Below, piece by piece: positions 3,001 to 51,967 of a DNA stretch of 64,000 nt. Position 1 is the first letter of the stretch, and every line of letters starts with the position of its first letter. Source of the DNA: a virus; IMG/VR virus record IMGVR_UViG_3300010149_000010, one strand, 5' to 3'. The position numbers and the translations under genes were made by a program. The notes beneath the pieces are model-generated. The model worked only from the letters and a program-made list of their open reading frames with translations. It searched no databases and had not been told where the DNA came from.

Positions 3001-3626
3001 GCCAGATGTCTCTTCCAGCTACGGTGCGTGACTTCCAGAATCTAGTCTATGGTTACACTGTTGGAGACAGCAAAGGCCAAAGCCAGGGTGTGCGCAGCAA
3101 AGAGGCCTATAAGCGCTCTGGTCGCCAGCCTAGAAACACAGCGCTTAAGGATAACATGACTAAGAAGTCATGTGAGGATTGGACTTGGGCTGGTGTGCAG
3201 AAACCAATTACCTCACAGCTCGAGGTCAAGTTCAATGGTTCTGAAGTTGTTGGTGCTGAGAACAACTTGTGCGACATCAGCATCCGTGGCTACCAAAACC
3301 ACACCTTTGATGAGTGTTGGCGCGGTGCGTACTCGTTGGTTCGTTTCACACCTAGCCTTCTCTGGAGCTTTGCCAACGTGATGGAACCTGGTGAATTCCA
3401 AGAGATTAACGCTAAGAGCATCGCTAAGGTTGGCGCTTCTTCTATCCGTCGTCACTGTATTGGTTTCCGCAAAGCCAACTTTACAGAGATGGTTGAGGGA
3501 GTAAAAGTTACGTCGTTAAAGATGGACCCAGCAATGGTTCCCTACCTTTTCGGCATCCTTGCGGATCAAGAGGAGATCGAGATCGGCATGGACGCTCTCA
3601 ATAGTCCTGACCGTCCTAACGACTAA
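3..3626 (+). CDS. Large protein, 5'-truncated by the window edge; probable single-chain two-barrel (YonO/cellular RdRP-like) RNA polymerase, C-terminal part
   Basis: The frame of the 63..3626 ORF is open back to nt 3 and reads ALVDSTLQQKVCGDNDGDRNMISF. The DxDGD motif (nt 42-56) is followed by GNVGGVTQ and LCQQIAIDRQK, which resemble the 'lG.i.n' and 'aVD..K' motifs downstream of the catalytic loop in RdRP/YonO enzymes. Confidence 0.6.
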   Translation, partial: ALVDSTLQQKVCGDNDGDRNMISFDKMLVAIAKHITRKHPTTFPAREQSKKFVLNTFDDVVLEKGGWLRSFNKYMKTGDSSELLLISKFLSAPGGTPGQGNVGGVTQCAAAPMLFCDWHWVKKDGKDVYEPVNPAARKLVNYLYLCQQIAIDRQKYYYLAPSLLHWFFADLEVGDAVIKELKAGGHADTNWLHSHYPIQGAADMSFEEYQAAWKNGTLPVISEIIPGMGKGAMGGQSVAPMMYSNGPLYVWTAWQVNGINLGFDYFDKDRMVELSGFFDEEIAQTADWQGIIDHLNLSVSAEQLEESWVWPGYITGWVNTNFRESQDLSPETFQSARIHANNVWLEKMEQAGIDADPAVTLVESGLADVLKEKAGDYAVEMPAWGTRLLATTIYRSYVAGSSEAAEAMSQSARLQTDHHASGSDKLSFLRQALTSRDMDVSVGDMKIMESIKDLRFVWAKALQNDKMSDERRLQVLCAMMHFGITVIADCIEELENDKTSQIAQNFIWALEDHAIADIAALTTADKWKEWRDANDATYSGLEAKNRREMMDTCRKLMNRDGFYHWISQQNLNSLKAEDIATWLVMDGEEAHSKIIDFIGSDFFGAIGEAWSRQELKGSRNSVEDELMDIITDLMELPVDDNFMGCVEGYSRDLIQEIRDDELRLQSEEVSDEAQMAWYSLNASEYERHVAAITRPITSLIRLVKHQMRVLEHNVDNGANQEDEIDVFWPTIKAALFGSHKELDDETGEWTDVTHVESRIVYELPVQHIATMNLAALEQGYDVEILVDMIDNPKSFYEDEDGNVELPSEPEGYYYTRKGYIHLSAIMTKMALEVESRDDVLQWLIAQFKGGVGHVTTSKHLTMAYGSAEGRDHFWFVPEEEAYPQYHNDPQVLQVQKTFESCYAETVTVSYLHDDAEETLEALECFENPEAFSPGDVQYYEDYMKEMFEVQMYLPPLFGGRSNWDELYDGKYSKFYDEQLIMSPYKLLRTYSFMMEGQDVSQMSLPATVRDFQNLVYGYTVGDSKGQSQGVRSKEAYKRSGRQPRNTALKDNMTKKSCEDWTWAGVQKPITSQLEVKFNGSEVVGAENNLCDISIRGYQNHTFDECWRGAYSLVRFTPSLLWSFANVMEPGEFQEINAKSIAKVGASSIRRHCIGFRKANFTEMVEGVKVTSLKMDPAMVPYLFGILADQEEIEIGMDALNSPDRPND

Positions 3627-4509: not shown

Positions 4510-4983
4510 ATGGCTAATCAAGAACTAAAACTTCACGACGACGCTTCCGAGCTTAGTCTGCCTGAGGCACGCCTAGCGCGCCTTAAGGTTCTCCGTGATA
4601 AAGTAGACGAAAAAGCCGCTTGGAGCGGGCGAGGCGATAAAAAGCCTGCCCGTTCCCTACTTGTAGTGGACGGTGCAGATGCGAGTCAAATCGCTTCGTA
4701 CCTGACCAGCAAGGGCCAATCATCTAGAGTGACCTTCGAGGTCACCGAGCATAAGTTACGCGGGATCTTTGACGATCATATCCGTGAGCTTGAGCGCGAG
4801 ATCGCAGAGGCGGAGAAGGCAGCAATGCCCGATCCGATGCAGGCCGTTCGAGAGATGCAAGCAGCAATGCAAGCACAGCAAGCCCAATTCATGCAAATGA
4901 TGGTGGGCATGATGAGTGGTAACACTTCTCCCGAGGCTCCTGCTCCTGCCGAGACTGCTCCTGAGGCTCCTGCTGAGTCGTGA
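4510..4983 (+). CDS. Hypothetical protein (coiled coil, M/Q-rich segment, PAET/PEA tail)
   Basis: AAGGAG RBS upstream of the ATG; 157 aa ORF. Confidence 0.75.
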   Translation: MANQELKLHDDASELSLPEARLARLKVLRDKVDEKAAWSGRGDKKPARSLLVVDGADASQIASYLTSKGQSSRVTFEVTEHKLRGIFDDHIRELEREIAEAEKAAMPDPMQAVREMQAAMQAQQAQFMQMMVGMMSGNTSPEAPAPAETAPEAPAES

Positions 4984-5371
4984 TTTTAAGTGAAAGCTGT
5001 TCTTCGGAGCAGTTAGTAGCAAACTCGTTAACCGAAAGGTGTGACGAGACGAGACGTAGTGTCTCAAGCCTAATTCCCCTTGGCGTAAAAATGGGGCGAA
5101 AAACTTTTCCTGTCGGAACGAAAGGATCTTCATCATGACCTACTGGGTTGATGAAAGAGGTGTTGTGCACTTCGAAAATCCACGAGCTCAATAAAAGCTT
5201 TATGGTCGCAGCTATGCGTAAATAGTGGGTAGCTATACCCTTGAAATAGCCGGAGCTATGATAGCTTCGTTAGTCAGAGAATGACAAACAATCTGATTTA
5301 GACTTTTATTATAAAAAAGTCGGCAGCCTTATTAACGGACGGACGTAATGTCGCCAGTTTCAATAATAAGC

Positions 5372-5474
5372 AGTGTCGTCGGAAGCCCTTAGGGGTGGAA
5401 GACCTGATGAGTCTAGTAGTTCATTCTGCTAGCATCGCTTTAATTAGTGATGTCCTTTAGGGGAACGAAACACT
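5372..5474 (+). ncRNA. Hammerhead ribozyme (type III topology), predicted cleavage after GUC at 5377
   Basis: Stem III AGTGT(5372-76)/ACACT(5470-74); cleavage residue C5377; stem I GTC/GAC capped by GCCC-TTAG-GGGT; core CTGATGA (5404-10); stem II G-C and T-A pairs carrying three sub-hairpins; CGAAA (5466-70). Confidence 0.8.
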
Positions 5475-6132
5475 TTTCTCATCAAGACAGCTAACGCTGG
5501 GCCCAGTGATTTTCTAAACACTTAAAAAAAAGAACATTAGAATTTTCAACGGAAGCCAGATGCGCCTTCGTAAAGAAAAGCATAGTGCTCGCTTAGACCT
5601 TCGGGTCTTACCTGCGGAAATGAATGATAAGTTCATGTTCTAAAGGATACCAATGAGAAATGGTAAGCGGGTTACTGGCACAAGGTCGCAACTTGTGTCG
5701 CTGGAGATAAAACCAGTACCCTTAGACAAGGGGTGTGCGCGGTTTGTAGAAAAAACAAACCCATATGCGCCTCATGTCAGCAGGTCAAAATACAGTGGCT
5801 ATTATCAGGCATGGTAAGTAAGTCAATAAAGAATTTCTCGGGGCTGTTCTCCCCACTTCAGTAATGTAGTACTTACTGTAATAATAGGGAACCAAGGGTC
5901 AGCCAAATAAGGCCCTGGCATGGAAGCTCCTTAGCGGGAGTGGGAAAATGCAAAACCAGCAAATCGATTAGCTAGCCTTAGCGGGCAAGTTACCGAAGAG
6001 CCGGGGATCTGTAATAGTGGTGTATTACAGACACAGTGCGAATTCCAAAAGGGGGAGCTGCCGTAGATATCTGCGGTAACGAACTTGATTAGGTGTTGCG
6101 TATTTGTGCCTTGTACGATTATATTGTGCAAG

Positions 6133-6232
6133 GGTTGTGAGGAATTGGAACGCCTCGCCTGATGAAGAGATCATTAAAAATCTGCGATCTCTCTTGGACA
6201 TCCTTTGTACTTCGGTACATAAAGTCGAAACC
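6133..6232 (+). ncRNA. Hammerhead-like ribozyme variant with an extra hairpin after CUGAUGA, predicted cleavage after GUU at 6136
   Basis: Stem III GGT/ACC; stem I GTGAGG/CCTCGC; CTGATGA 6159-65; inserted AGAGATC/GATCTCT hairpin; stem II GAC...GTC with a UUCG loop; GAAA 6227-30. Confidence 0.5.
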
Positions 6233-6412
6233 AGCAGTCGTCTATCCAGCTATGTCAAATCCACTGCGACATATTAGAGGGATATAAAATATTAAGTGGT
6301 ACCTTCAGCCTACAATGCGTTTCAGGCCGGTGTAAAAATAAGAAACGAAATACGGTTAGCGTTAGAAAGTGCGTCCGTTCTTCAGTAATTTACTGGAGTG
6401 ACTTTCATTTAT

Positions 6413-6539
6413 GGCTTGCTTTGGTAGAGCCGTGGGATTCTAGGAGATGTGTGAACCTGCTTGCATGGCAGGTGGTCATTGATCCATCGGGAAGCTGCAA
6501 CTTCCTGCCACGGTTTATGGTTCGATTCCGTAACAAGCT
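6413..6539 (+). ncRNA. tRNA-like element with an enlarged, branched arm in place of the anticodon arm
   Basis: Acceptor-like GGCTTG/CAAGCT; D-loop-like CTTTGGTAGAG; long helix GCCGTGG/CCACGGT; T-arm TTATGG-TTCGATT-CCGTAA. Confidence 0.45.
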
Positions 6540-6912
6540 TTAGTCTCTCAGCACAGAGACAATCACAAGCCCTGTAGAAAGGAATATACAGGCCAGGGTA
6601 GACTCCCAATAATGGTAGAGTCCCCTGAATTAAAAGCGCGATTAAAGCGCTCAAGACTACTTTTCCTAAGGGTACAACACTTATTATTTTGACAAAAGAC
6701 GAGACGAGACGAGACAGAAACGTCTGCTGGCCACAATAGTCAAATAAATATGCGTAATAAAACTAATAAATACTTAATATATATAGTGTTTTTAGAAAAA
6801 GACATAAATAGTGAGAGTGGACCTAGTATAATAATGTTAATCGGGAAGAAAAACATTAACTAGGTAAACAATAAGCCACCCTAAAACAATCTTGCTGTGA
6901 AGCAGATCACGC

Positions 6913-6960
6913 TGCCAGGGCTCGAAAGGTCATTGTAGGTTCAAGTCCTACCCGCTGGTA
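6913..6960 (+). ncRNA. Minimal tRNA-like fold (acceptor-like stem plus T-arm, no anticodon arm)
   Basis: TGCCAG/CTGGTA closing stem; perfect T-arm GTAGG-TTCAAGT-CCTAC. Confidence 0.35.
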
Positions 6961-6965
6961 AGCAA

Positions 6966-7032
6966 TCGCGTATAGTGTAAAGGTACACGCCATAGTGATA
7001 TGGAAATGTAGGTTCAAGTCCTTCTACGTGGG
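6966..7032 (+). pseudogene. Degenerate tRNA or tRNA-like RNA with an abnormal anticodon loop
   Basis: Acceptor TCGCGTA/TACGTGG; D-arm GTGT-AAAGGT-ACAC; anticodon arm CCATA-GTGA-TATGG with only a 4-6 nt loop; T-arm GTAGG-TTCAAGT-CCTTC. Confidence 0.5.
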
Positions 7033-7082
7033 TTAGATTCGTTCCAGTAAAAAATAGATTCAAAGCATATAGGAATAAATAT

Positions 7083-7627
7083 ATGCGCCGCGAAAACAGA
7101 AAGAGAATACTAATGATAACCAATAGGACTAAAGACGTGCAGAGAGCAGAGCGCCGCCAATGCTGGCAGGTATTCGGTTTGTTACAACCCCTACTGATGG
7201 TGTTGTGCATCCTCCTGGGAAACAATGATCCCAACTCACTGTGGTCATGTGCTGGCTTATTGCTGGCCGTGACCTTCGGGATTAGTTTCCCTTTTCTACT
7301 CTACCAAGAATATTTTTATCAGTTAGGGTATGGGTGGGAATGATGGAGCTCAAACAAATCGCAGAAAGCCTAGCCAGAGAGCTAGGGACGTCGCATCAGG
7401 TACTCTCGTCCTACGTGGTAAAGCAAACACCACAGAGAACGATGCCACTACTGCAACTCATTGAGTTGTACATAAAGGTGAAAGGTGAGCAGGCCTTCAT
7501 TAAGAATTATCTTGACCAAGACTCTCTTTATAAGGAGCATGGTGGTTTTTTACAGAGATCAGCTGATTCAGCTGGCAACACTTGGATTTCATTTGTCCAA
7601 AGCGTAATAGCTTTCGGTCAAATCTAA
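7083..7627 (+). other. Two small overlapping hypothetical ORFs (7083..7343 membrane protein; 7334..7627)
   Basis: ORF track; the first follows AGGA and has two hydrophobic segments. Confidence 0.5.
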
Positions 7628-7659
7628 AACAGTCAATTCTTCGGTAGACTATAAAAGCC

Positions 7660-7870
7660 GACTTAAGCCACAACATGGTGTTGCTTACCCACTGTCTAAT
7701 ATTGGTATACTTACGGAGATATCAGTAGAAGACGAGTCAAAGCTAGATACGACCGTAATCGTTATCTGGTGGAGATAGGTAAGTAAGAGGTTCTATTCCT
7801 CTATGTGGTAGCCCCTCATGAGAACTACTTCTTCGTAGTTGGGGTTCAGGCAATTTCAGTAGCCTATATG
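7660..7870 (+). ncRNA. Candidate structured intergenic RNA
   Basis: Nested pairings GCCACA(7667)/TGTGGT(7804), TTGCTTACC(7681)/GGTAAGTAA(7778), CTAGATACGA/TCGTTATCTGG, AACTAC/GTAGTT; no ORF. Confidence 0.4.
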
Positions 7871-8077
7871 GTTGTGCGTAAAGCACCTATACTGATAGCA
7901 GAGGTTCTCAAAAAAAAGAATAATGCGCGCGATATTAAGCAACTGATTTGCTATTGCGTTCAGAAACTCTTTTTTCTCCTTTAGTAACAATAACTTAAAA
8001 GTTTGACAAGGCGAAACTTTTAAAGTTGTTATATAAAAGATTGACTTAATACACACATTCTCTAGAAAGAGCAAAAA

Positions 8078-8794
8078 ATGATGAAATTAATATCATCGAT
8101 AATTCTCACCCTTCAATCTTCCTTATCCTTCTTATTCAGTGGTGGTGAAGTAGCGATGAACTTAGCAGACAGCAATAAGCTATCAGTTGAGGCTAAAAAG
8201 TTCGTCGACGGCGGAACTCGCAGTTTAGGAACTTGTGCATTAGCTAACCACTTAGCCAATGCTGGGTTCAGCATGTTAAACGGCTTCCTCGTAGGTTCTT
8301 ACTGCGGATGGCAATGGGGACTGTTTACGACAGTCTTCTCTCTGCTTGGATTATGGTATCTTGGTGAGCTGTTACCAAAGATGACTGCAGCCAAAGCGCC
8401 AGAAAAGTTCTTAAACACTCATGCAAAAAAACTCCTCGCTGCAAAATCTCTACTATCTCCCATAGTGGACAGGATTGTGAAAGAAGAGCCAAGATGCGAA
8501 GTAAAAGAGAATGAGAAGGAATTAGTATCTGCCGCCCGTATGGCAGATGAAAAATGGAGCATCCTCTTACTACCTTTGTACGATGAACCAAAAGGAGGTA
8601 AAGCCCCATCTCTGATTCATAAAATTTCTTCATTGAGCTCCATAGAGGAGGTCATGTTGGCGGTGTGCTTGAAGAAAGAAGACAAAATAGTAGAATACCA
8701 AGTGATCGATGCCTACCACTTAAATGTAGTAGGATATTTCAACCCAATCACCATCATTCGTTGGATGATGGATCATAAAGAATTGAAAAAATGA
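8078..8794 (+). CDS. Hypothetical membrane protein
   Basis: 238 aa ORF with hydrophobic segments. Confidence 0.6.
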   Translation: MMKLISSIILTLQSSLSFLFSGGEVAMNLADSNKLSVEAKKFVDGGTRSLGTCALANHLANAGFSMLNGFLVGSYCGWQWGLFTTVFSLLGLWYLGELLPKMTAAKAPEKFLNTHAKKLLAAKSLLSPIVDRIVKEEPRCEVKENEKELVSAARMADEKWSILLLPLYDEPKGGKAPSLIHKISSLSSIEEVMLAVCLKKEDKIVEYQVIDAYHLNVVGYFNPITIIRWMMDHKELKK

Positions 8795-8926
8795 TAATTA
8801 TAATTCTATTAAGCATTACTCTAGTTCTAGGTTGGGCAGCCATAGAACTAGGAAAACTACAATGATCTTTCTAATTATTGTTGCAACTACAGTAGCAACG
8901 TTAATGTTTACATCGCTTTTTTTATA

Positions 8927-11900
8927 ATGAGGTCGGGGGAGAACGCAATTATCGAATCATATGGGGCATACGTAAAAGGTATTAAATTATTCCCGCCAGC
9001 AAATATAAAAGTGATGCGAGAAGAACTAAAAGAACTCGTCGAAGACAAAACGTTAGAAGAATTCTTCGATGTTCTGCACACTGCGTGCAGGATATTTAAA
9101 ATACCAAATTTCATAACATATTTTGTAGCCTATCCAACTGCAAGAAAGCACGCAAAACGTGTGATGCAGTACGGTTGCCCACGTTCACGCCGGGCTCACA
9201 GTGAGGCAGGGAAAAGATGCGTATGCAATATGTCATAATAAATGAAGAATACGGTTACCGGATCTGGATGTCAAAAGTCACACCAGAAAAAACCAAAGAA
9301 CTATTAGCATGGTGGAAGTCATTAGAGACTGTGACGGGTATGTTTTACGACCCAAGCAGCAAGTTTCCAGTACCACTTACAGAACTGACAGAAAACAACA
9401 GAGACGACTACCCTGACCTAATCAAGGAAAATGTCGCTATCTACGTTGAACTTCATGAAGACCATGACTCAAGATTCAAAGTCATGGGAGACCAGGTGTA
9501 TTACCACCGTGGTTATTTTAACATTAATTCACTACAAAAGTAAAAAAACATGTCAAATGTAGAATTTTTTACCAATTCACCTTTCTCAGACCGCAATGAT
9601 GACAGCAAAAAAGTCACAGAAACTTTATGTCGTCACTACAACGTCGAATTACCACCAGTTGGTGCTCGACACTTTCTGTCACACCTAGATGAATTGACAC
9701 CCCTTGCGATTGAGAAAGCCTTCTCCCTATTCGACCAAGCTGGTATCAGTGCAGGAGCCCACACGTTTCAAATCGACAATCCGTTTTTAGCGGTAACTCG
9801 ATTGTGCGGAGTGAAGGTTGGTGACGAGTCTCTAGAGAATGAAGTCAGAACGCAACACTACAGAGGAGAAGATCGCCCTCTTCAACCAGTAGTAATCCGT
9901 GAGAAACCCTTTAGAGAAACAAATAAAGTAACACTTATCGTCTTTCCTAACAAGGAAGGTAATTTAACCCTTTACACAATGCACTCAGGACCTGCAATGA
10001 ATCCAGATTTTTCTCATGAAGACTGGAAGACCAACGCTTTAGCGTTTAAGTCTGAGGAGGTGAACCATGTCGTGTAATAACTGCGTAGACCAGAATAGAG
10101 AAATCTCCGAGGACATCTATATGTTTTCAAGAGACACATCAGGAATTCATGAGATCGACGATGAGATCTTCTGCCCTGACTGCTCACCCTGGAGTCGTCA
10201 GGAAAGAAAGTCTCGATGGGACGACAATGATGACTGGGGTGGAGACCCCAACGATGTAGCAGGCAAAGCATTCGCAGGCTACTAACTTTACAATCAGACC
10301 ATTACTTCATTGTAATGCAAACCCTCTAGTAGGGGATTCTTTCAAAAGAAGAATCTTAAAAGTGTCGAAATCAAATAACAGAACTTGTGTTATTCCTTTC
10401 TGGAGTTTTGTTATAGAGCTAATGATATGCTCTCGCCTCTGTTGTGTGCGGCGTGATAGGGTGTGTACCCCTGATGACTCCATGATGGAGTGATTGTATT
10501 TTTCTAATGACGTAACGTCAGGAGACAACATGAATAGTAAAACTATGCACTGGATCATTTACGACCTGTTGGTTCAAACAGGCCATATAAAATCAATAGG
10601 ATATGGTCTTGGAGACCAGGACGGATGTTTAGTAGAGAGGAATCTAAATGTTTACAACTCTCACACTAACAAAACCCCAGCGAAAACCCCTAAAAGGAGC
10701 CGAAATGTCTAACATCCCACAAGTACATCAACAAGTCTATGAACTGTTAACAGTTCAACAAAAAAACTTCTTCTACATCCACTCCCTGTGGCAGGGTGTT
10801 TCATGCATCCGCTTGAAAAGTGGAGTAATGAAAGAATTCGCAGCCAGCGGAAACGAATGTCAAATGCAAACGTTTCTAACTTATGCACAACACATCGTCG
10901 CGCTAGCACATGCTAAAAATATCTGGACCTGTGTAAGGTTCAGTAACAATGGGTACCAATCAGTACTCGTTTACCTTGGGACAAGAAATATAGACGAATT
11001 CATGCGGTTGTCAAAGATTCGTCAAGCAGCTGCAGCTGAAAATGCTGAGGCAAAAGCAAACTGGCCGGATGGAATTCTGGATAAACACGGAGAACCGTAC
11101 GGGAGTCGAACATGATCAATCAAATTAAAGATGACTACAATAATTTACCATCGTGGGCTAGGATGCTCATTGGGATAGGAGTCTTATTCAGCATCATTAA
11201 GTGGTTTCCAATAGTTGAGCTGCTTGAGTTATTTTCTTATGTTGTCATCATACCCCTAGGGTTCCTAACGTTCCTAGGGCTAGTTTCAAAAGAAACTACC
11301 AATGGGGTAGTAGAAGCCTGGAATACCGTATGTAACACAATAAGAGAAAGAGCAGCAGAAGTAGCTACTGCAGAAACACCTAATGTAGAAACAGAAACCA
11401 CAAACGAAGCAACGGGATCATAATATGGAAGAAGCACTCTTCTGTCGTCTCTGCATCGTGATCATATCAATGGCTGCATTCCTTTAAAAGGAGACTAAAA
11501 ATGAAATCATTGTCACTTATATTTGTGTTTATTTTAACACTACCAACATTAGCTCAAGCCAAGCCAACATGCAAAGAACAGATTGCTTTTGTTAGAGCCA
11601 CTATCAAAGTTCTAGAAAAAACAATTCAAGAATGTAAAGAGCAATGGGATGGAACATGTAACATGGCCATTTCAAGTAACCATGAAGCCGTACTAGACGG
11701 TCTTGATTATGCATACCAAATCTGCCCAAAAGAATGGGTAGAAAAACTAAAAAAAGTAGAAAAGGCTTTTGACAATGGTAAGTAATGTACTAGAAGCACT
11801 TCAAGAAATATCAGCTCGAGAAGAACAATTGCCAAAAGCAGTAGATGCTGTAAGCGAAATAATAAAAGACTGCGTAATACCCGACCTGGTAGCACTAGCT

Positions 11901-12065: not shown

Positions 12066-12133
12066 CGTAAACGTTTAAAAAGTTAATTCTTCTCTATTAA
12101 ACCAATGCAGAAACAATCAATGTAAAACGCTTT

Positions 12134-12207
12134 GGGCCTATAGCTCAGTTGGTTAGAGCACCCGACTCATAATCGGTAGGTCCCAGGTTCAAGTCCTGGT
12201 GGGCCCA
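12134..12207 (+). tRNA. tRNA with CAT anticodon, most like tRNA-Ile2 (lysidine type); no encoded CCA
   Basis: Cloverleaf with GGGCCTA/TGGGCCC acceptor, CCGA-CTCATAA-TCGG anticodon arm and GGTTCAAGTCC T-arm. Confidence 0.9.
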
Positions 12208-12217
12208 TAAAAATTTT

Positions 12218-12290
12218 GGACTTTTAGCTCAGTTGGTAGAGCATCGGACTTTTAATCCGCAGGTCCTGGGTTCGAACCCCAGAAGGTCCA
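12218..12290 (+). tRNA. tRNA-Lys(TTT); no encoded CCA
   Basis: GGACTTT/AAGGTCC acceptor; CGGA-CTTTTAA-TCCG anticodon arm; GGTTCGAACCC T-arm. Confidence 0.95.
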
Positions 12291-12314
12291 TTTAAAAAAG
12301 GAGAAAATAAAGAA

Positions 12315-18644: not shown

Positions 18645-18717
18645 GCACTAATAGCTCAGTTGGAAGAGCAGGGGCCTTCTAAGCCCAAGGTCGCAGGTTC
18701 GAGCCCTGCTTGGTGCA
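18645..18717 (+). tRNA. tRNA-Arg(TCT); no encoded CCA
   Basis: GCACTAA/TTGGTGC acceptor; GGGC-CTTCTAA-GCCC anticodon arm; GGTTCGAGCCC T-arm. Confidence 0.92.
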
Positions 18718-51147: not shown

Positions 51148-51967
51148 ATGACTACGCATTCTACAAATTCCTCTCACTCTACCTTTATAAAAGACAGCAA
51201 TGTATCTATAGATGTCCTCAATGTTAACAAAACAAGCACTCATGAAGAAATCATACGATCTCTACCTTCATACCATGATATAGATTCAACGTTATTCCAA
51301 GATGGAAATACCATAGCTTTGACGCCTCCAGTCGATCCAGCTCATGCACAAAACTCCATGTTTTTTGTAGATGGTGTTTCTTTGTCCAGGGTAGAGTCTG
51401 AACAATCTGTTCAGCAAGGTTATTATTTAACCCCAGATGGGTTGCATTTAACGTTAACTGCTTTTGAAGACTTAGTCTCAAAACAGATTCATGCATTGTA
51501 TACTCATCAGTCATAATGTTATATTAAATTCAAAACAATAACTTCAATTTTGCAACTTGCAGGAGGTAATTATGACTGTTGTGTACCCCGGCTTAGTAAA
51601 TATAGACGGCTCTACAATTACTGTCAATACGGTAAACGTTTATGACGATAACCAAAGAACTTATACTTACGACCTAACTGATCAGATTCCTCAATGGCAA
51701 TCTTTTTCTGAGCTCTCTCTAGAGGATGAAATCTTAGCTCAAGATTTTTTAAAAACTATCAATCTGCCTTCTTCAGCAAGAATCAACACTCTTATAATAA
51801 TTCTAGACGGTTTGACACTGTCGCCCCAGCTTTCACCTGGCTCTCCTGGTGATTATAAAGTTATCAATTCAACTACACTTGAGTTGTTGTGGCCTGACAA
51901 TCAACTGCCTCGAATGCACAGTGAGACTGATACTCCAGTCTTACTCGCTCGTTATACTCTGGCTTAA
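51148..51967 (+). other. Two small putative structural-accessory proteins (51148..51516; 51557..51967)
   Basis: Both carry a '..DG..L....G..Y' pattern and precede the fibre genes. Confidence 0.45.

Follow-up and report, generated by a model that had tools for sequence, protein, structure and literature searches.

A probable hammerhead-headed non-coding RNA locus with a conserved frame and exchangeable cargo in a phage genome

The DNA analyzed here is a 64,000-nucleotide (nt) stretch of the IMG/VR virus record IMGVR_UViG_3300010149_000010 (the window), and its positions 4984–7083 form a non-coding island that we read as a + strand RNA gene cluster, in which a unit headed by a hammerhead ribozyme keeps a conserved frame and carries exchangeable cargo. 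We give this reading a probability of about 0.6. The island is non-coding, compensatory base changes are present in the hammerhead and in a 3' frame element termed module E, cargo has been exchanged between phages, and transfer RNA (tRNA)-type T arms occur on one strand. The island extends from the stop of a gene for a 157-amino-acid (aa) protein (4983) to an ATG at 7083, just downstream of a putative phage RNA polymerase gene, and all long open reading frames (ORFs) of the window are on the + strand. The ORF ending at 3626, the C-terminal part of the putative polymerase, had no match in Pfam or PHROGs.

Relatives were sought by single-protein, DNA-pattern and protein-alignment scans of IMG/VR, one metagenome scan and two GTDB genome scans. 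Only two related phages were found. The first, L003, is a 161.7-kilobase (kb) metagenome contig whose polymerase C-terminal part is 76% identical to that of the window. The second, G001 (IMGVR_UViG_3300020385_000005), is a genome of 161,781 base pairs (bp) with direct terminal repeats, rated complete; its polymerase C-terminal part is 26–28% identical to that of the window, and outside the exchanged tract described below the two genomes are 60–72% identical at best. Scan matches L008, L010, L011, L021 and L023–L026 were rejected as chance matches, and a blastn search of 4990–7035 against GenBank phages gave no match. Many more relatives of this phage exist than the two compared here, because the 157-aa protein has 13 homologue clusters (71–91% identity) in Logan, ENA and JGI data, with one relative in IMG/VR. 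Module borders (Table 1) were drawn from local alignments of the window, L003 and G001.

The island encodes no recognizable protein. No + strand ORF in it exceeds 57 aa, and reading TGA, TAG or TAA as sense opened no frame of more than 157 codons. Conserved blocks were aligned with the two related phages and mismatches were tallied per codon phase. The control genes were strongly periodic, with mismatches by phase of 20/8/61 in the 157-aa gene (p = 5e-12), 252/155/622 in the putative polymerase gene (p = 1e-77) and 56/28/136 in a CNNM-like gene (p = 2e-19), whereas 3-periodicity was absent from all nine non-coding island block comparisons (p = 0.37–0.98). Since mismatches in the conserved blocks are flat by phase and the flanking genes are periodic, the island is non-coding.

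The hammerhead at 5370–5476 carries the clearest structural signal. Its core contains CUGAUGA and GAAA in both the window and G001, the cleavage triplet GUC lies at 5375–5377 and is followed by G5378, and the A5470-U5376 (A15.1-U16.1) and G5411-C5466 (G10.1-C11.1) pairs are the same in both relatives. Stem III is open, and stems I and II are closed. A symmetric internal loop interrupts stem I, which also bears a distal hairpin, and the 2-bp base of stem II (G10.1-C11.1, U10.2-A11.2) leads directly into three hairpins (5413–5432, 5433–5452 and 5453–5464). The Rfam model RF00008 scored this element at 17.8 bits (E 2.6), below the gathering threshold of 48.5 bits; the low score is due to inserts of 20 and 52 nt in stems I and II, not to the core. 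A custom covariance model, R1, built from the three phage copies, scored 125.1 bits in the window, 130.6 in G001 and 108.5 in L003, and located a single hammerhead in the window and a single one in the entire G001 genome. When the three sequences were parsed helix by helix, all seven helices were kept, eight pairs were altered on both sides and a single A-C mismatch was present. The double changes fall in stem III (pair 2, GC to AU), stem I (pair 1, GC to CG; pair 3, CG to GU) and hairpins IIa (pairs 4 and 5), IIb (pairs 5 and 6) and IIc (pair 3). An automatic count on an alignment unrefined for indels gave 84% of cells paired, compared with 37–48% in slid controls, and four double changes. 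On this sequence evidence the element is very probably an active ribozyme.

Structurally, the hammerhead represents a new variant within a known ribozyme class. Phage intergenic hammerheads with a 2-bp stem II are known and cut polycistronic transcripts (PMC3088659), and the element resembles the type III hammerheads of phages and prophages (RF00008; Perreault et al. 2011, PMC3088659) in its core, GUC triplet, open stem III and 2-bp stem II base, as well as in its intergenic setting and the presumed role of cutting a long phage transcript. Unlike those ribozymes, it falls short of the family threshold, its stem II opens without linkers into three hairpins to form a four-way junction, its stem I contains the symmetric internal loop, and it heads a long non-coding RNA, whereas the known ones flank protein genes.

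The frame around the ribozyme is bounded by two cassettes, direct repeats 1,660 bp apart that flank the unit in all three phages. The 18-nt core of cassette 1 is invariant in the three, and in the window, as in the complete G001 genome, the GACGAGAC motif has just two copies, one at each end of the unit. The motif is therefore a unit-specific signal and not a general promoter; cassette 1 is a possible promoter or operator candidate. The conserved leader together with the hammerhead (5291–5476) is 71% identical to the window in L003 and 83% in G001. At the 3' end of the unit, the three-phage consensus fold of module E has 33 pairs, and in 12 of these both partners differ in one phage or more with pairing preserved; within the island only the hammerhead has better covariation. 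Codon periodicity is absent from the module E mismatches. As far as three aligned sequences can tell, such compensatory changes, in module E and the hammerhead alike, indicate that both elements are constrained as RNAs. The AT-rich element that follows cassette 2 probably acts at the DNA level, as a promoter or an origin-like signal, and not within a folded RNA.

Cargo module C is where the window and G001 are closest. Between 5470 and 5843 they differ at 3 of 374 positions (99% identity). Two of the differences, C5681T and G5695A, are partners in a single base pair of the hairpin CACAAG/CUUGUG in the consensus fold, and the third, T5641C, converts a G-U pair of that fold to G-C. From 5844 to 5990 the two phages differ by whole-hairpin replacements, with an extra UUCG hairpin in G001; a long-range helix (~5772–5786 with 5911–5923) that closes this variable hairpin domain is kept, as is a 47-nt identical block. 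Judged on the modelled fold, these differences are of the style typical of structured RNAs. The exchanged tract has its 5' boundary within the hammerhead. L003 carries an unrelated 1.57-kb cargo at the same frame despite its 76% identical polymerase. Because the tract is 99% identical in phages whose polymerases are only 26–28% identical, the cargo C segment points to a recent horizontal exchange, and cargo is apparently exchanged by recombination within the conserved frame. A host origin of cargo C was rejected, as no exact-pattern match was found in 185,579 species genomes.

Folding of the unit was stronger than that of shuffled controls (z-score −4.1 for 5378–5995 and −3.5 for 5996–6700), with a modest excess over coding windows. 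The island contains seven UUCG/GNRA hairpins on the + strand (two overlapping) and none on the − strand, about four times the density elsewhere (Poisson P ~0.002). With permissive Rfam filters, GOLLD, ROOL, HEARO and OLE gave no match at E ≤ 10 in 4800–7300, and searches of 4800–7300, 7000–9000 and L003 6300–10800 returned only the tRNA-like match described below, the weak match to the 5370–5476 hammerhead and noise.

Elements resembling tRNAs punctuate the 3' half of the locus. A strict search pattern for T arms, requiring a 5-bp stem, a UUYRANN loop and a closing G-C pair, had six matches on the + strand of the 64 kb and none on the − strand; three of the six are in the real tRNAs of the window (Met and Lys at 12133–12291, Arg at 18645–18717), two are in the island (6516 and 6935) and one is at 51806. 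With a one-mismatch copy at 7008, the island T arms are 6516–6532, 6935–6951 and 7008–7024. In element 1, the helix CCGUGG/CCACGG (6430–6435 with 6508–6513) bears a 72-nt branched insert in the place of the anticodon arm, and ARAGORN reported a Cys-like fold only at the 85% threshold. Element 3 matched the Rfam tRNA model (RF00005) at 37.2 bits, above the cut-off of 29, but was not called by ARAGORN at default settings; elements 1 and 2 had no Rfam match at E ≤ 10. Elements 2 and 3 have a 16-nt T arm in common. In G001 a T-arm element occupies the relative position that corresponds to 6413–6539, and none was found upstream of module E in L003; the counterpart of 6911–7032 is unrelated sequence in both relatives. 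No transfer-messenger RNA was found by ARAGORN at the 90% threshold in the three loci. Because element 3 has a 4-nt GUGA loop and element 1 a 72-nt insert for the anticodon arm, the three elements are, on their predicted folds, tRNA-like and non-decoding rather than tRNAs. Processing by RNase P/Z at these mimics is plausible. An earlier note on this DNA had described a + strand structured RNA locus without a credible ORF, with many UUCG/GNRA hairpins and three T-loop elements, and not assignable to a known family; our results agree on each of these points, with one predicted self-cleaving hammerhead and non-decoding tRNA mimics as the recognizable parts of a locus RNA that matches no large-RNA family.

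Engineered tRNA scaffolds are used to stabilize recombinant RNAs, and element 1 resembles such a scaffold. So does a construct observed in the relatives with ARAGORN allowing introns, a well-formed cloverleaf with a 126–130-nt insert in the anticodon loop that is conserved between L003 (9437–9640) and G001 (reverse strand 11200–11403; L018, minus strand). Its acceptor stem is GGAGAG/CUCUCC, and it has a D arm and the T arm GAAGG-UUCGAAU-CCUUC; it is either a natural tRNA scaffold with an RNA insert or an intron-bearing tRNA.

Table 1 Features of the island 4984–7083 in the window and their occurrence in the two related phages
Feature	Position	Strand	Structure or sequence	Occurrence and placement
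UUCG hairpin	4995–5014	+	8 bp; terminator-like without a U tract	Directly after the stop of the 157-aa gene; kept in L003
Cassette 1	5041–5070	+	GTGACGAGACGAGACGTA, then a 5-bp hairpin (GAGAC/GUCUC) and AAGCC	5' frame of the unit
Variable leader	5077–5290	+		Phage-specific; absent from L003, other sequence in its place in G001
Conserved pre-ribozyme leader	5291–5369	+	Hairpin GACUUUU..AAAAGUC (5301–5321); invariant 21-mer ACGGACGTAATGTCGCCAGTT (5339–5359)	
Type III hammerhead ribozyme	5370–5476	+	Predicted cut between C5377 and G5378	
Cargo module C	5477–5990	+	Structured RNA without a known family	Shared with G001, absent from L003
Cargo module D	5991–6412	+	Holds 6094–6237	Phage-specific; no similarity to L003 or G001
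tRNA-like element 1	6413–6539	+	Acceptor-like stem 6414–6418/6534–6538; GGUAGAG D-like segment; T arm UAUGG-UUCGAUU-CCGUA (6516–6532)	
Module E	6566–6694	+	Two hairpins and a GCGC hairpin	Present in L003 and G001; 3' frame of the unit
Cassette 2	6695–6740	+	Second GACGAGAC copy (AGACG x3.8), then a hairpin	Present in L003 and G001
AT-rich conserved element	6741–6860	.	ATAAATACYTAATATATA ... GTGSACCTAGT; GC ~0.38	Kept in all three phages
tRNA-like element 2	6911–6963	+	Acceptor-like stem, short hairpin, perfect T arm (6935–6951)	
tRNA-like element 3	6966–7032	+	Full cloverleaf; tetraloop GUGA replaces the anticodon loop	

A search of sequencing runs located the exact window sequence in DNA runs from which it may derive, and shorter shared stretches in other runs. 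RNA evidence came from the contigs of three metatranscriptome runs (one study), examined together with one DNA run. In the three RNA libraries, contigs of a G001-type unit cover 5020–5058, 5404–5618 and 5630–5957 at a depth of 4–30 and carry the G001 haplotype at 5641, 5681 and 5695; the window's own variant was not seen in these runs. These contigs lend weak support to transcription of the G001-type unit. One of them ends within a few bases of the equivalent of 5378, with four non-matching G's, and was not counted, as contigs cannot show ends.

From this arrangement we infer the following course of events. A transcript would start at or near cassette 1 and run through the leader into the hammerhead, which would cut itself between 5377 and 5378, so that the leader is discarded and a 5'-hydroxyl is left. 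The product, 5378 to ~6694, would be a stable, folded RNA of ~1.3 kb that begins with the ribozyme fold and continues through cargo C and D (~0.9 kb), the tRNA-like scaffold (6413–6539) and module E (6566–6694). The scaffold may aid 3'-side processing or stability. A second unit would begin after cassette 2 and the AT-rich element; a second group of non-decoding tRNA mimics stands at 6911–7032. The RNA may serve in host takeover or as an anti-defence decoy, or form a GOLLD/ROOL-like RNA-only assembly; of these guesses, a host-directed or anti-defence RNA is the most attractive, given the adjacency to the polymerase gene and the accessory-gene-like exchange.

Several points weigh against this reading. 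The comparison covers only three sequences, effectively two haplotypes for cargo C, so that covariation has little statistical power; 19 of 500 shuffles match the observed hammerhead covariation score on the unrefined alignment, and the L003 hammerhead, which reads UUGAUGA (U for C at core position 3), may be a weakened copy. Recent transfer is the best explanation for the near-identity of cargo C, which therefore does not on its own count as evidence of selection. The fold excess in a sliding scan is modest (mean z −2.4 in the island and −1.5 in coding sequence; Mann-Whitney p = 0.005 on overlapping windows), and the RNA contigs are compatible with DNA carry-over and cannot show ends or strand. 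A weak terminator-like hairpin (5495–5508) and a sigma-70-like site (5515–5543) lie just 3' of the ribozyme, and the cargo might be transcribed separately from it, the promoters and terminators here being candidates. The whole 2 kb had also been proposed to form one precursor, which is doubtful because the island falls into at least two units, divided at ~6695–6860 by cassette 2 and the AT-rich element, and because of the terminator-like hairpin and sigma-70-like site after the ribozyme and the possible DNA-level role of the AT-rich element.

Other explanations make different use of the same features. The earlier note had placed two hammerhead cores on the + strand, with cuts at 5377 and 6136 that would excise an RNA of ~760 nt with 5'-OH and 2',3'-cyclic phosphate ends, to be circularized by an RtcB-type ligase. 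The 5377/5378 site is real, with an intact core conserved in three phages, and hammerhead letters do occur at 6140–6236 (a 6-bp stem I, CUGAUGA, GAC..GUC and GAAAC). However, the 6094–6237 element has a 31-nt hairpin and linker inserted between A9 and G10.1 and a stem III of 3 bp, gave no Rfam match at E ≤ 10, scored 5.5 bits with R1 (E 1.3, amid ~20 noise matches) and folded no better than shuffles (z −0.35). Its segment has no homologue in L003 or G001, and the whole genome of G001, which shares cargo C, contains no second hammerhead. The candidate cut at 6136/6137 was rejected for its non-canonical core, noise-level score and lineage-specific segment, and because this second cleavage is unsupported, so is the 760-nt excised or circular RNA. 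The complete G001 genome encodes no RtcB or Rnl2-type ligase. A viroid-like or retrozyme-like twin-ribozyme circle was likewise rejected, as it requires two flanking ribozymes and the window has one hammerhead. L003 offers the model some encouragement in a hammerhead-like relic within its own cargo (7406–7486; R1 29.8 bits, E ~5e-5), ~738 nt past its first site and with stems I, II and III intact, but the relic deviates from the core at two places (U9 and a swapped U15.1-A16.1 pair). Variants with the swapped pair can keep low activity (PMC3088659), and the relic could be a weak second ribozyme in L003. A recurrence of the second-hammerhead layout near 10.4 kb was rejected, since only CUGAUGA and a hairpin (~10470) are present, with no Rfam or R1 match. 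We consider excision by two hammerheads very improbable. Hidden protein-coding genes, either for small proteins or in an alternative genetic code, are less probable still. The only sizeable ORF in cargo C, of 54 aa (5653–5817), has AGGA five bases 5' of its ATG, but C5681T and G5695A are both non-synonymous in it and yet compensatory in the hairpin, stop reassignment opens no long frame, and codon periodicity is absent from every conserved block.

A more serious competitor treats the island as a regulatory or recombination spacer, in which DNA-level promoters, terminators, an origin or swap points surround decaying tRNA genes and hitch-hikers; the hammerhead would then merely trim a leader or be a neutral passenger, and no long RNA would have a function of its own. 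Cargo that is not conserved between close relatives, the many tRNA-derived-looking fragments, the AT-rich element inside the island, the iteron-like 11-bp repeats of L003 and the modest folding excess would all suit such a spacer. It accounts poorly for the RNA-level constraint indicated by the compensatory changes in the hammerhead and module E, for three of three cargo C substitutions that preserve predicted pairs, for variable hairpins that differ by whole-hairpin insertions while their closing helix is kept, and for the presence of the G001-type unit in RNA libraries, and we think it unlikely. The direct repeats on either side of the unit, found in each of the three phages and at no other place in G001, could instead mark a mobile or satellite-like RNA/DNA element, a cassette-flanked parasite of phages that moves by site-specific or homologous insertion at the GACGAGAC repeats, and near-identical cargo in very distant phages is what such an element might leave behind. 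Yet the unit neither contains nor adjoins a gene for a recombinase, a reverse transcriptase or anything else, and it is at the same genomic position in the three phages. Because only the cargo is swapped and the divergence of the frame follows that of the genomes, homologous exchange fits better than transposition, and the mobile element is improbable.

The RNA gene cluster that we favour has partial counterparts elsewhere. The ORF-free tRNA region of T4 also yields stable non-tRNA RNAs, such as the species 1 and 2 RNAs, as phage tRNA clusters do, and the island is like a T4-type cluster in lying on one strand and in having tRNA shapes that punctuate small RNAs, which RNase P/Z could release; it is unlike such a cluster in that its elements are non-decoding (the GUGA loop, the large insert) and that a ribozyme takes part. 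Theta (HDV-like) ribozymes beside phage tRNAs (PMC10879173) are likewise self-cleaving ribozymes that define RNA ends in a phage RNA-gene cluster, but they are HDV-like where ours is a hammerhead, and they process functional suppressor tRNAs, whereas no recoding is seen here. Large phage RNAs near tRNAs are known in GOLLD and ROOL (PMC5737381), and the locus matches GOLLD (RF01998) and ROOL (RF03087), large (0.6–0.8 kb) structured RNAs that are often phage-borne and adjoin tRNAs, in size class and context (PMC5737381; 10.1101/2024.12.08.627333). It differs in giving no match to their models at E ≤ 10, in starting with a hammerhead, which is not reported for those families, and in having cargo that is interchangeable between phages rather than one conserved family.

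Further observations were made around the island and at the corresponding places in the relatives. Directly 3' of the AT-rich element and GTGCACCTAGT, L003 has an 11-bp tandem array (8681–8770; CCTAGTCCAAC, 6.4 copies) that looks like iterons or a protein-binding array; a looser version is present at the same place in G001, and no such array was found in the window at 6830–6900. A ~230-nt block of L003 (8760–8990), ~95% identical to the G001 reverse strand (10250–10468) and without a window counterpart, contains hairpins (GGGGCUCUAAAAGCCCC, GCGCGCCC..) and is a further conserved non-coding island module. Two overlapping small + strand ORFs of 86 and 97 aa, the first membrane-like, lie at 7083–7343 and 7334–7627, between the tRNA-like elements and a conserved block at 7777–8098; they had no tblastn match in G001 and no Pfam or PHROGs match. 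This 320-nt block (L003 9618–9932; G001 reverse strand 11369–11669) is 83–84% identical in all three phages, more conserved than the surrounding coding sequence and without codon periodicity. It lies upstream of the CNNM-like gene (8078–8794) and is retained in L003, which is without that gene. A T-arm-like hairpin (AGAGG-UUCUAUU-CCUCU) stands at its start; the block also includes a GCCCC...GGGGU helix and, immediately 5' of the start codon, a long AU-rich hairpin. It could be either an additional RNA gene or a conserved leader. Elsewhere, a small Cys-rich ORF (from 10068) is found in the region 10078–10647, in which the block 10315–10577 is 72% identical to G001, and the 157-aa protein (4510–4983) ends in a variable Pro/Ala/Glu repeat with a 15-nt period. 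A search for enrichment of CCUUAG-type and ATAGTG motifs led nowhere.

No description of this layout, ribozyme-capped, frame-conserved, cargo-swapped and punctuated by tRNA scaffolds, was found in the literature searched, although its components all have precedents. We tentatively suggest an RNA cassette system of phages, in which a frame (GACGAGAC cassette, leader and branched hammerhead on one side; tRNA-like scaffold, module E and cassette on the other) would carry interchangeable structured cargos between very distant phages in the manner of accessory protein genes. The ribozyme 5'-OH and the scaffold on the 3' side might then yield a stable, early, host-directed RNA, for example a decoy against RNA- or tRNA-directed defences, or an assembly of the GOLLD/ROOL kind. 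The pattern of exchange is that of accessory genes in an arms race, here with RNA as the cargo, and the locus links phage and bacterial hammerheads with the large ornate RNAs of phages, the roles of both of which are largely obscure. With a defined cleavage site, a defined frame and a swappable cargo, it is a testable system that could probe the role of long structured phage RNAs, and it could show whether natural tRNA scaffolds stabilize or process long RNAs, as they do in synthetic biology.

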